64,000 nt of DNA from Octopus vulgaris (lineage: Eukaryota). Of the stretch, positions 2,116 through 56,896 are shown in pieces. Below the pieces are notes generated by a model. That model worked only from the letters and a program-made list of their open reading frames with translations. It searched no databases and was not told the DNA's origin. The translations under genes and the position numbers were made by a program. The stretch is taken from contig OX597833.1 in NCBI GenBank assembly GCA_951406725.2, positions 50,344,001 through 50,408,000 of the forward strand, read 5' to 3'. Position 1 is the stretch's first letter. Each line of letters opens with the position of its first letter.

Positions 2116-2399
2116 GCTGAGTTGTCAAACATTTAAACCAAATTTTTTCAAAACAACTTGTCCGACCGTCTCATAGGTTTCCCTTTTGAGAAACAATAAT
2201 TTAATATAAATTTGAGACACCAGCAAAAGAAGAAATAAAGATAAGACTTTTTTTCTATTCCAAAGAAAAACGATTTTATTCACACAAATATGCAACCGAA
2301 GAGTTTAAAGTACCAGTAAGTACATTACAACTGCTGATGGCTTACTGTTTGCTTCTTCCATGGGTATGTGTAAGTATTTCATTTATTTCTTTACCGCAT

Positions 2400-2460
2400 T
2401 TATCACTGACGAAGGGAGGGTTCTTATGAACTAACCCTGAAATCGGGTCCAATATGATAA
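2400..2460 (+). ncRNA. Degenerate type I hammerhead motif in a probable Penelope-like remnant (~2260-2600)
   Basis: TTATCA-CTGACGA-AGGG...CCCT-GAAA-TCGG-GTC-caata-TGATAA: core boxes and stem II intact; stem I offset by 5 nt. Confidence 0.5.
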
Positions 2461-2607
2461 TAACGGAATTTTTAAAGAAATTTCTGTCGGCTTTCTTCGA
2501 GACGCGTGCTTATAGTGATGAATTATATGATTATGGACGATGTGTCTGTTTTCGGCATATTTGGCATTAGAAATTTTTTATATTTTGCCCTAAGTTATAT
2601 ATATATA

Positions 2608-2939
2608 ACATCACCATCAAAATACAGGTCCAGATACTGCAACAGCTTGGGTTTCAGAGGACCACAGCTCTTTAACATCCTCCCTAAATGCCTGAGAGAC
2701 TTACATGGTGTGGATGTGGGTTTCTTTAAAACTAAACTGGATCTCTTCTTGTCGGGAGTCCCAGATGAACCTACCTCACGACAGGAGACGCGGATGCGGG
2801 CAGCAGCATCGAACTCCCTTGTTGATCAAGTGCCACGTATCAGAGGTGGATTCACAAATTAGTGTAGCTCATTCAGCGGTGGTTCCCCAGCATGGCCGCG
2901 GCCTTCGGGCTAAAACATTTTAAAGGATTTAAGGATTTA
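2608..2939 (+). mobile_element. 3' end of CR1/L2-group LINE (ORF2 C-terminus, 3'UTR, tandem tail)
   Basis: Open frame ...NSLGFRGPQLFNILPKCLRDLHGVDVGFFKTKLDLFLSGVPDEP...AAASNSLVDQV ending TAG 2860-2862; short UTR with stem-loop; (TTTAAGGA)n tail. Confidence 0.8.
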
Positions 2940-38493: not shown

Positions 38494-38873
38494 TGGTACT
38501 CCGTCGGTTACGACGACGAGCGCTCCAGTTGATGCGATCAACGAAACAGCCTGCACGTGAAATTAACGTGCAAGTGGCTGAGCACTTGGCAGCCACATGT
38601 GGAGCCTTACCGTAGTTCTCGAGAAGATTCAACGTGACACTGAGTGTGACAAGGCTGGCCCTTTGAAATACAGATACAAGAAAGAGTGAGAGAAAGTTGT
38701 GGTGAAAGAGTACAGCAGGGTTCGCCCCCCACCCCACCCCCTGCCGGAGCCTCGTTGAGCTTTAGGTGTTTTCGCTCAATAAACAAACGCTCACAACGCC
38801 CGGTCTGGTAAATCGAAACCGCGATCCTACGACCACGAGACCCCTGCCCTAACCACTGGGCCATTGCGCCTCT
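38494..38873 (-). mobile_element. SINE-E, near full length
   Basis: Reverse complement: GAGGCGCAATGGCCCAGTGGTTAGGGCAG...GACGGAGTACCA. Confidence 0.9.
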
Positions 38874-38990
38874 ACTAAATGCAAATACATGCACACGCGC
38901 ACACACACACATACACACACACACCCTCTCTTTCTCACACACACACATATAATTATTCGCTGAGCGAGATATAAACAGAAGCAGCACGAC

Positions 38991-39262
38991 ATCGTGAAGT
39001 ATATTTACCTCCTAAATGTGCCTAACCCATCGCCAACGGGTGATTGTCACACGCTGATGACGGGTCAATATTCAGAAACTCGGGTCCGTGTGTATCACAT
39101 CAGTTTGGAGATGGGAACGATGACTCCCCTTTGCAAATACTGATAGGGCACAGATAGGGTATCAATAGCTAGCTGGAGGACATGCCTTCTTGGGGCTACA
39201 ACCTACAATAGCATCGACCCTTCAGGGTTAGCCACATTTAGGTGGCATATGTACTTCACGAT
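38991..39262. mobile_element. 272-bp element with 38-bp terminal inverted repeats enclosing a hammerhead
   Basis: Arms 38991-39028 and 39225-39262 match at 33/38 positions. Confidence 0.8.
39048..39092 (+). ncRNA. Minimal type I hammerhead ribozyme (Penelope-type)
   Basis: CACACG-CTGATGA-CGGGT caat ATTCA-GAAA-CTCGG-GTC-CGTGTG: perfect 6-bp stem I, near-palindromic stem III, GUC site at 39084-39086; stem II weak (G.U pairs, C.A closing). Confidence 0.8.
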
Positions 39263-39299
39263 ATACATACATACATACATACATACAAACATACATACA

Positions 39300-39373
<74 letters not shown>

Positions 39374-39887
39374 TAGATAGATACATATACATACATATAT
39401 ATATATAAGTATATATATACAGGCACACAGGTACACACACGCACACAAACACAGACGCAGACAAACACGCAATCAGGCACGCACACACGCACACACGCAC
39501 ACACGCACACACGCACACACGCACATATATGTATATATATATATATATACAGCTATGTATATCTGTATATATACATGTGTAAGCAATATATATGCGTATA
39601 CAGAAACACATACGCGCGCACACACACATACACACGCACATAATCTTCATGTCCCCCTTGATATAAAAGGTTTTTAACATATATAGAGATCTTTATCATA
39701 AAAGCCAAATTAAACCTTATTTGATAAAAAACTCATTACGCAGAGTAAAATATTTACTTAACGTACAAATCACAGAAAATAACTTCACAGATTCGCCTTC
39801 ATATTAAAGCATACATTGACTTATACACACGTTTATATTTGTACATGCCCGTTCGTTTGTGAGATAGTATTATGTTTGCATGTATAG

Positions 39888-51290: not shown

Positions 51291-52532
51291 GGTGTCCCCA
51301 AAAAATGTATACAGACTTTAGCAGCTGATAACTCAATTGATATTTTTTCTTTCCAGATGAAACCTATAGGATTTAATGATGGTAGTCAGATTAAGCTTTG
51401 AACAAAGAAAATTCATTCTAAAATGATACTGGAAGTGTGAAAATGCAGTTGAAGTGCAAAAACAGTTGGGGAGGGAGTTTCAAACAGATCCACCAATGCA
51501 ACTCCCTATCACTTAAATTAGAGATAAGTTTGAAGCTGATGGAACTGTTCAGGATGTCCACGATAAGCATTCCAGAAGACCCCGAACATCAGCAACCTCA
51601 ACAAAGCAAGGAGTACTGGAAATGAATCACCAAAGTCCAAGAAAATCTGTGCGGCAAAGCGAGTCATGAGGTAGGTATTCCAAAATCATCTGTCCAATGC
51701 ATTTTGAAGCATTGTCAATGGAAAAGTTACATTCCAAGATTAGTCCATGCTAATAATGATGATGATCCAGACGAAAGAGTGCAGCACTGTGAGTGGTACT
51801 TGGAACGATGTGTAGAAGCTGCACACTTTCCAACAAAGATTGTGTGGAGTGATGAAGCCACATTCAAATTAAATGGTTCAATTAACTGCCACAATTGCAC
51901 CTACTGGGGTCCTGAGAATCTGCATGTTATGGTGAAACACCATGTTAATTTGATATTTGTGTGGTGTGGTTTATCATCAAGAGGATTAATTGGACCATTC
52001 TTTTGTTATGCTACTGTGACTGGTCCCGTTTACTTGAACTTGTTGCAACAGTCTGTTATGCCAAGCATTAGAGAAGACTTTGAAGATGAGGAGTTTTATT
52101 TTCAGCAAGATGGAGCACCCCCACACTACCATTGCTATGTTAGATCCTTCCTTGATGAGATCTTGCTAAACAGGTGGATTGGATGAAGAGGTATGGTTGA
52201 ATTCACCAGACCTCACACCACTAGACTTTTTTATGGGGATACCTTAAAGACAAATTCTACGCTATGAAACATACAAGTCGCTGATTTGAGAGCAGCCATT
52301 GGACGAGAGTGCACACAAATACCAAACAAATTCTTTTGTGATATTTGTGATTCCATTCCTTTGCGTTGTCAGCAGTGCCTGGACCAGACCGGACATCAGT
52401 TTGAAAACAGGCATTGACAAAACAATAAAATAATGTCTGTAGATTCTATTAAATTTTGAAAATGAAGTGTCTTTTAATAAACAACTACTTTACAATTGTT
52501 TAAAGTGTGCATACATTTTTTGGGACACCCTG
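51288..52532 (+). mobile_element. Full-length Tc1/mariner DNA transposon (probably DD41D/rosa group), inactive
   Basis: TA flanks; ~32-bp TIRs CAGGGTGTCCC(C)AAAAAATGTAT; 1245 bp. Confidence 0.95.
51376..52417 (+). pseudogene. Transposase pseudogene
   Basis: MMVVRLSFEQRKFILK*YWKCENAVEVQ (HTH region)...[13 protein letters not shown]...FQQDGAPPH...RWIG*RG../SPDLTPLDFF/WGYLKDK...GHQFENRH*; several stops and frameshifts. Confidence 0.93.
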
Positions 52533-55720: not shown

Positions 55721-55973
55721 TATTATCAAAATTATAATCATCATTAGTGAAGACGCGTGACCTAGTGGTTAGGCAATTGCACTCACGATCGCTAGATCGT
55801 TGGTTCGAATACCTGACTGGGCGGCGCGTGATAATCATCGCCAACAAGAACATATCAATAACAAGGCTGGAAGATACAATTCTATATTTAAGAGATTAGG
55901 AATTATGTACACTACTTACATTACTTACTTTATTTACATTCGACGGATATTTGTCCTCATCTTGTTTGTTGTC

Positions 55974-56019
55974 AGCACAACGTTTCGGATGATATACCCT
56001 TCAGCCTTCATCAGGTGTC
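55974..56019 (-). ncRNA. Minimal type I hammerhead, inverted copy
   Basis: GACAC-CTGATGA-AGGCTG...CATCC-GAAA-CGT-T-GTGCT; one mismatch each in stems I and II. Confidence 0.65.
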
Positions 56020-56031
56020 TTGGGGCAGTGA

Positions 56032-56134
<103 letters not shown>

Positions 56135-56205
56135 GTAGTAATAATAATAATAACAACATCGAAAAATACCTTAGGAATGAGAACCCAGGTTCGAAATTTC
56201 TCCAA

Positions 56206-56251
56206 GACACCTGATGAAAGCTGGAGAGTATATCAGCCGAAACGTTGTGTT
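56206..56251 (+). ncRNA. Minimal type I hammerhead (Penelope-type)
   Basis: GACAC-CTGATGA-AAGCTG...CAGCC-GAAA-CGT-T-GTGTT; loopless palindromic stem III ACGT; predicted cut after GUU at 56246. Confidence 0.8.
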
Positions 56252-56896
56252 AACAACAAACAAGATGAGGACACATATCCGTCGAATGTAAATAATGTAA
56301 ATAATGTAAATAATGCAAATAAAGGCTGGAAGAGTAAATTTCCATGAATGAAAAAGTGAGAAAAACTAGTAGAGGGATGGATGAATTAGCCGGATGCACC
56401 TGGGTAGCCCAGCATAGAAAATCTGAGGTTAACCCAACACCACGTCAAGTATGTAGCTTACATCTACATAAATATCCACGCGTGCCGGTGTCTGTTTAAA
56501 TATTTCTCTTTCCACCATTAGTATCTCTCTCTCTCTTTCTCTCCCTTTATCTCCCCCCTCTCTCCCCCTCCACCCTCTCACACTCTTTCTGTCTCTCTGA
56601 TAACTTAGACAGACATTGTATATTCACGCCATGTTTGTTCTATATCTTATATATCAGTTTTCTTCTGTTCCGGTTTTGTTAAGTCCGTCGTAAATATGAC
56701 CATATGGATAATCCCTTTGATCTTCACAAACTTCAAAACGGAATGATGAGAGAGAAAATGGGGCTTTTTTCTTAATTACATGGCAATGAAACATTTAATA
56801 TAAACATGCAGATGCAAAAATGAAACACACTACACACAACCATGCACATATATATACACATATATATATATATATATGTGTACGTATATCTATTTT

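Follow-up and report, generated by a model that had tools for sequence, protein, structure and literature searches.

A hammerhead in an inverted-repeat element

The segment at 38991-39262 of the window (the whole stretch of 64,000 nucleotides of Octopus vulgaris DNA analysed here) has the look of a MITE and encloses a hammerhead ribozyme motif, and the question it raises is whether these 272 nucleotides are a mobile unit in their own right or a piece of something larger. MITEs are short, non-coding, non-autonomous DDE transposons with inverted ends. The initial annotation proposed a non-coding, ribozyme-bearing element closed by 38-bp terminal inverted repeats, and its direct observations hold: the hairpin-shaped repeat and the hammerhead motif are real. 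The arms, 38991-39028 and 39225-39262, are alike in 33 of 38 letters, a count recovered by blastn within the window (E 1.8e-7), and their similarity ends abruptly on both flanks. The hammerhead core lies at 39048-39092, as had been described, with CUGAUGA from 39054, GAAA from 39075 and GUC at 39084-39086, and thus has the CUGANGA box, the GAAA box and the UH cleavage site of a type I hammerhead in their order. The closing stem I consists of the 6 bp reported previously (CACACG/CGUGUG) and is prolonged beyond an internal loop by five further pairs (39040-39044 with 39094-39098; pairing probability 0.94). Stem III, ACUCGGGU, is the near-palindrome that had been noticed, a self-complementary 8-mer including two G-U pairs, and its pairing probability in the monomer of the window copy is 0.00. 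The same value was obtained for stem II, in agreement with its description as weakened.

A type I descriptor, in which stem I had to reach at least 4 bp, matched none of 5000 dinucleotide shuffles of the element; it matched the real window twice and none of 40 block-shuffled windows. Covariance models did not bear the motif out. Rfam at gathering score gave no match over the whole window, likewise missing the other hammerhead motifs present there, and at E values up to 10 over 38900-39350 its 13 matches were microsatellite-driven miRNA and snoRNA models, with no hammerhead model among them. The fold of the body is no better than that of its shuffles (z -0.52), and the minimum-energy fold of the window copy is not a hammerhead.

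The absence of coding capacity was also borne out: all three forward frames of 39029-39262 contain stops, and Pfam gave no match for 38964-39140, the one frame among those scanned that overlaps the element. The window is gene-poor and rich in microsatellites and short repeats, and its repeat landscape looks octopus-like. Among 140 of its frames, the longest of 299 non-repetitive ones of at least 45 aa, none matched a PLE domain (RT, GIY-YIG) or a DDE domain in Pfam, and two gave weak, unrelated matches below the cut-off. Self-search of the 64-kb window found no further copy of the 38991-39262 element, and a degenerate hammerhead core pattern had no match in metagenome, viral and prokaryote collections.

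A high-copy family in public contigs

Evidence on the family comes from public-run contigs aligned on 38945-39278 at 80% likeness or more to the window copy, a selection that favours apparent conservation. The element belongs to a high-copy repeat family, as had been supposed, with 2855 contigs in DNA run X1 and 2684 in DNA run X2. These two runs bear different organism labels, have nearly equal alleles and share some identical joints, and X1 may come from the source of the window itself. Runs X15 (316 contigs) and X10 (25 contigs) were guessed to be RNA and may be DNA or read-through, and we make no claim of expression from them. Relative to the median depth of the eight longest X1 pieces listed, the summed depth of X1 amounts to a factor of about 2,900 for the hammerhead, about 5,900 for the 3' end and about 17,900 for the peak; these figures give an order of magnitude and not a copy number.

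Among the rows listed, the family majority letter differs from the window copy at 21 of the 234 places of the body (about 9%), so the window copy must be old, and the five mismatches between the arms would fit the decay of formerly identical sequences. At 39113-39172 the summed depth reaches roughly six times the value for the hammerhead, which may mean that many copies begin 3' of the ribozyme or that a related family has this segment as well. Contigs with loose ends before 39105 (19 and 15 contigs) cease to agree a little 5' of the predicted cut site, a signal too blurred to place 5' ends.

Parts of the locus

Comparison with the contigs divides the locus as follows.

38890..38950, no strand: (CA)n-rich microsatellite adjoining the tail end, where a TSD is unreadable
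38951..38990, minus strand: tail of 31-40 nt of family sequence after the 3' end of the repeat, in the inverted copy only
38991..39028, minus strand: inverted 5'-truncated copy, the last 38 nt of the repeat (formerly the left terminal inverted repeat), 33/38 to 39225-39262
39029..39262, plus strand: direct terminal-repeat copy (pLTR-type) of 234 nt with a shortened 5' end, from the contig comparison
39040..39098, plus strand: type I hammerhead with extended stem I, core at 39048-39092, predicted cut after 39086
39225..39262, plus strand: tail-less 3' end of the direct copy (formerly the right terminal inverted repeat), from the arm match and the depth drop
39263..39420, no strand: (TACA)n/(TA)n microsatellite adjoining the 3' end, the probable target

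In order, then, the locus consists of (CA)n, an inverted tail with the last 38 nt of the repeat, a direct 234-nt copy and a (TA)-rich run. The left limit of the tail falls within 38951-38960, so that the insertion starts at about 38951-38960 and not at 38991. The window copy has no TA or 8-bp TSD at 38991/39262, with AC on the left and microsatellite on the right. Three joints and a set of mixed loose ends gather at 39040-39042, where the extended stem I begins and beside a small hairpin (39029-39044); copies may preferentially start here, or the alignment may simply reach its limit. Just upstream of the insertion, at about 38640-38872 on the minus strand, is what we take by eye to be a tRNA-like SINE head.

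The inverted arm varies between copies

The left arm is not an end of the family. Over the tail (38969-38980) the summed depth is 67,779 in X1 and 56,452 in X2, the majority letters at 38979 and 38983 are present in 73-104 contigs, and one X10 piece fits 38949-39028. Loose ends before 38960 continue with common letters in 34 contigs of X1 and 33 of X2. In the contigs the family goes on beyond the tail, left of 38960, as T-rich sequence in sense orientation, and following this run may lead to the 5' UTR, an intron or the ORF start of a full-length partner, or else into a monomer of greater length. Where the direct copy ends, the X1 depth falls from 223,815 (39245-39256) to 1,764 (39269-39278), and no tail follows 39262; two further contig pieces extend past this end into the microsatellite, to 39273-39275. 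A tail of 30-40 bp at one end only, as in insertion units of EN+ PLEs, is therefore present at this locus (38951/38960-38990).

At the junction of the two copies the X1 depth is 14,337 (39029-39040), compared with 151,052 on one side (38993-39004) and 160,944 on the other (39053-39064), a dip partly due to the divergence of the window copy itself. Among contigs leaving the left arm at 39028, 31 of X1 enter the reverse complement of the interior, and contigs entering the body at 39028 have about 21 other common letters upstream (33 contigs in X2, three in X15), preceded by AT-rich sequence. In the 5' direction the family seems to end in AT-rich sequence some 21 nt before 39029, as would be expected equally of a short non-autonomous unit and of the start of a pLTR. 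Inversion-type joints were found at no fewer than seven places (38995>39074, 39006>39082, 39006>39053, 39017>39108, 39028>39119, 39042>39139 and 39116>39203), and the joints listed also include two of tail-to-head type, 38949>39042 and 38979>39042, both restarting at 39042. Most joints are backed by one contig per run, and opposite-strand joints such as 39028>39174 were left out as ordinary copies whose 3' end was aligned on the left arm.

An inverted 5'-truncated copy thus adjoins the 5' end at a junction that differs between copies, and terminal inverted repeats that are constant across copies and mark both ends, as in a MITE, were not found. The proposal that 38991-39262 with its 38-bp arms is the unit is not supported, given that the left arm continues as family sequence, the joints vary and the depth collapses at the junction. 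The left arm forms the inner portion of an inverted copy that is longer and tailed and has a variable junction, so the MITE look is incidental, and the 38-bp repeat would simply be the overlap between the 3' ends of two copies.

The ribozyme in family letters

Within 39048-39092 four variable places are listed, and each turns a G-U pair into a Watson-Crick pair. C at 39071 (89, 92 and 95% in X1, X2 and X15) and C at 39072 (77, 77 and 62%) together make stem II GGGU/ACCC, with four Watson-Crick pairs. In stem III, A at 39083 (55, 41 and 67% in X1, X2 and X15) gives the perfect palindrome ACUCGAGU, and C at 39080 (23, 17 and 15%) gives another, ACCCGGGU; these two alleles are unphased, both together would mismatch, and their shares sum to less than one. 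A two-sided change of stem II from G-C to A-U was seen in one contig, common to X1 and X2, whose core is damaged. In these contigs, chosen for their likeness to the window copy, none of the 27 places of core and stem I is among the 35 more strongly variable places listed (hypergeometric P 0.009), which together with the improved stems upholds the view that the core is kept in the family.

The 8-bp self-duplex of stem III has a predicted energy of -8.9 kcal/mol in the window copy and of -10.7 and -14.9 kcal/mol in the two family alleles. With family letters, the double hammerhead is level with the minimum energy of the dimer (-41.3 and -45.5 kcal/mol), as the idea of cleavage as a dimer had anticipated. 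With only stem II repaired it reaches -39.5 kcal/mol against a dimer minimum of -39.6, and in the window copy -28.7 against -38.0, about 9 kcal/mol off. Stem III is therefore that of a type I hammerhead as a palindromic dimer and not as a monomer, and stem II would pair in family letters, between an extra C and an extra A. By these modelled energies the family fits a hammerhead acting as a dimer, while the window copy has probably decayed and lost its ability to cleave.

Two features of the motif stand out. The 4-bp stem II of the hammerhead at 39040-39098 is flanked by an extra C (39061), which is a known trait of PLE hammerheads, and an extra A (39074), and the latter, between stem II (11.1) and the GAAA box (G12), is in the family majority, opposite the extra C. 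An extra A after stem II is not among the hammerhead variants described in the accessible part of PMC3088659, where a U-U mismatch at the same level is reported, as it is for the axolotl (PMC7229834). The extra A at 39074 may impair cutting.

A probable insertion of Penelope type

The arrangement found here has close counterparts among PLEs. In their insertions the 5' end can be joined by an inverted 5'-truncated copy, a tail of 30-40 bp frequently marks just one of the two ends, and TSDs are hidden in (TA)n targets (Craig et al., 2021; PMC8557442). Arkhipova et al. (2013; PMC3846280) described pLTRs of 193-218 bp, noted solo pLTRs, and found one inverted pLTR to carry a tail of 31 bp; inverted pLTRs with short 3' extensions are listed as peculiarities of PLEs in PMC8969392. 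Work in vitro on the anole PLE placed the start of reverse transcription at two internal sites, which mark the limits of the tail, and found a preference for AT-rich targets and a protein-assisted hammerhead that insertion does not require (Frangieh et al., 2024; PMC11167929). With EN+ PLE insertion units the window locus shares a 5'-truncated terminal repeat of about 200-250 bp, a head-to-head inverted 5'-truncated copy, a 30-40-bp tail at one end, a microsatellite target and a hammerhead in the terminal repeat; unlike them, it has no ORF. That target, without a readable TSD, and the position of the hammerhead inside the terminal repeat were both found at the locus itself.

Some traits of the hammerhead likewise point to PLEs. 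As in the PLE and metazoan type I hammerheads of Cervera and de la Pena (2014; PMC4209133), it has the CUGANGA/GAAA/UH core, the extra base between 9 and 10.1, a purine-pyrimidine pair at 10.1-11.1 and a short palindromic helix III suited to dimers; the extra base and the palindromic helix III are given there as traits of PLE hammerheads, and dimers of PLE hammerheads were described by Lunse et al. (as cited in PMC6765202). It differs from the minimal hammerheads of PLEs in its canonical proportions (6-bp helix I plus the closing helix, 4-bp helix II and 2-bp helix III with a tetraloop), and from those in PMC4209133 in the extra A that the family has between 11.1 and G12. As Naiads have no canonical hammerheads, the candidate clades would be Neptune, Hydra, Nematis or Penelope/Poseidon. 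The ends of published octopus Naiads looked unlike this element by eye, and a search of the accessible supplement of PMC8557442 for its 12-letter end motif was negative, though line breaks there could hide it. PLEs are abundant in octopus (PMC13282606; PMC8967140), with ribozymes unmentioned in the accessible main text of either study.

A second hammerhead family of the window, which forms a head-to-head pair at 55903-56322, speaks in the same direction. On these grounds we consider it very probable that the locus is an insertion of PLE type, whether its source was autonomous or not, and probable, with less assurance, that it is an old, decayed insertion made by PLE machinery from the terminal repeat of an autonomous PLE. 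Of what the initial annotation had concluded, the Penelope link has become the best reading, with both the layout of the locus and some traits of the hammerhead matching PLEs; and its non-autonomous ribozyme retroelement survives as a multi-copy, hammerhead-bearing sequence tied to PLEs and is not supported as a 272-nt unit with fixed terminal inverted repeats. In the most probable course of events, a PLE enzyme would have nicked AT-rich or microsatellite DNA and begun reverse transcription inside the RNA at either of two nearby sites, giving a 3' end with or without the tail of 30-40 nt. A short cDNA of the hammerhead-bearing terminal repeat (pLTR) alone would then have been inserted as 39029-39262, and a second copy, inverted, more truncated and tailed, would have been placed alongside as 38951-39028. 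In the ancestral RNA, two repeats would most likely have joined by their palindromic stem III into a double hammerhead and been cut after 39086.

Alternative sources and readings

The main competitor, possible at roughly half the weight given to the autonomous source, is a non-autonomous repeat of retrozyme type derived from a pLTR; a PLE enzyme acting in trans would have placed a dispersed copy of it at this locus. The geometry is the same as in the preferred explanation, and the difference lies in the nature of the master copy: since the PLE enzyme would insert in trans, an inverted copy and a tail are expected here too. The monomer might be 300-400 nt long, including sequence past both ends, and might stand in tandem arrays giving linear or circular RNAs. 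A non-coding unit with a type I hammerhead, as in retrozymes, is indeed what was found, and its proportions are of the canonical type that PMC4209133 links to tandem retrozymes. Like the animal non-LTR retrozymes of Cervera and de la Pena (2020; PMC7229834), the family is non-coding, a few hundred bp long and present in high copy number, and with animal retrozymes more widely (PMC7229834; Li, Clavereau and Pollet, 2026) it shares the type I hammerhead, a weak palindromic helix III and kinship with pLTRs. The very high copy number with no ORF seen, the common sequence past both ends that turns AT-rich and would allow a longer monomer, the two tail-to-head joints, the length of mussel retrozymes (350-390 bp; PMC7229834) and the report that animal retrozymes are pLTR-derived and also occur as dispersed monomers (bioRxiv 10.64898/2026.07.22.740005) all speak for such a source. 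Yet the window copy is a single monomer with an inverted arm and a tail, unlike the tandem units of animal non-LTR retrozymes, and the tail-to-head joints are at single-contig depth (56-74) and different from each other, unlike the fixed junction of an array. No 39086/39087 joint occurs among the 15 joints listed, which cover only 334 aligned bases, and no place gathers many molecule ends, a sign that contigs cannot give for RNA. A more specific version, a very high-copy retrozyme-type family whose hammerhead withstands a C facing an A at the base of stem II and cuts as a dimer, which forms circular RNA and which PLE machinery inserts with the whole signature of inverted copy and tail, seems to us rather unlikely.

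Two other readings carry far less weight. That 38991-39262 is a unit with fixed 38-bp terminal inverted repeats, either a DDE-moved MITE with a captured hammerhead or a ribozyme retroelement closed into a panhandle, is improbable. The arms (33/38), the size and the non-coding nature agree with it, and joint 39028>39119, the arm plus five letters, has a depth of 247 in X1 and 154 in X2, about three to five times that of a single contig, and recurs in X15, so that this inverted form, which is without the hammerhead, may occasionally be duplicated. Against it, the family sequence goes 31-40 nt and more past the left arm, the depth collapses at the junction, the inversion joints are variable and the window copy has no TA or 8-bp TSD; the resemblance to MITEs (short, non-coding, inverted ends) is confined to the window locus, the inverted repeat differing between copies and not forming the family ends. 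The variable joints and the continuing left arm largely rule this unit out. Least likely of all, with hardly any probability left to it, is that the hammerhead is a chance motif in an unrelated repeat. The silence of Rfam, the non-hammerhead minimum-energy fold of the window copy and the unremarkable body fold (z -0.52) would agree with chance, which is opposed by the 0 of 5000 element shuffles, by the better pairing that all four listed family differences in the motif bring, by the two alternative perfect palindromes of stem III and by the two-sided change of stem II in one contig. A SECIS element at 39120-39160 was considered as well and dropped, with no Rfam match and no partner strand by eye.

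We thus return to the insertion of PLE type, which by its likeness to described elements looks like a worn, dead-end Penelope tail-end copy in a published layout and not like a new kind of mobile element. So read, its significance is small, as hammerhead-bearing PLE ends number thousands per animal genome and the layout has been published, and it serves as a caution that such PLE fragments mimic MITEs in repeat libraries. Our search of the published papers found none on cephalopod hammerheads, and the family may well be catalogued already in Repbase, Dfam or a repeat library of O. vulgaris. Should the family prove to be of retrozyme type and mobilised in trans, the insertion signature would tie retrozymes to PLE enzymes and the family would be a large natural data set on the role of the ribozyme in the PLE cycle. 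The more specific version, if true, would amount to direct structural evidence for PLE machinery mobilising animal retrozymes in trans, with thousands of insertion ends that could be mapped against the cut site.

Other repeats in the window

Several other repeats were noticed in the window. A probable LINE 3' remnant with short tandem repeats at its end lies at about 2600-2930 (plus strand), and a frame at 51626-52186 (plus strand) resembles a remnant of a Tc1/mariner-type transposase; both were recognised by eye and have no Pfam match. At 2398-2463 (plus strand) there is a third hammerhead-like core, with CUGACGA, a stable stem II and GAAA, in which stem III and GUC agree in 12 of 13 letters with the motif at 39048-39092 and stem I is offset by five letters. 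A second hammerhead repeat, of a family unrelated to the first, forms a head-to-head pair split by (TAA)n, at 55903-56023 (minus strand) and 56202-56322 (plus strand); its motif is of the minimal PLE type, with a four-letter palindromic stem III, and truncated PLEs in the form of head-to-head hammerhead pairs have been reported (PMC4209133). An additional piece of this second family lies at 1548-1608.
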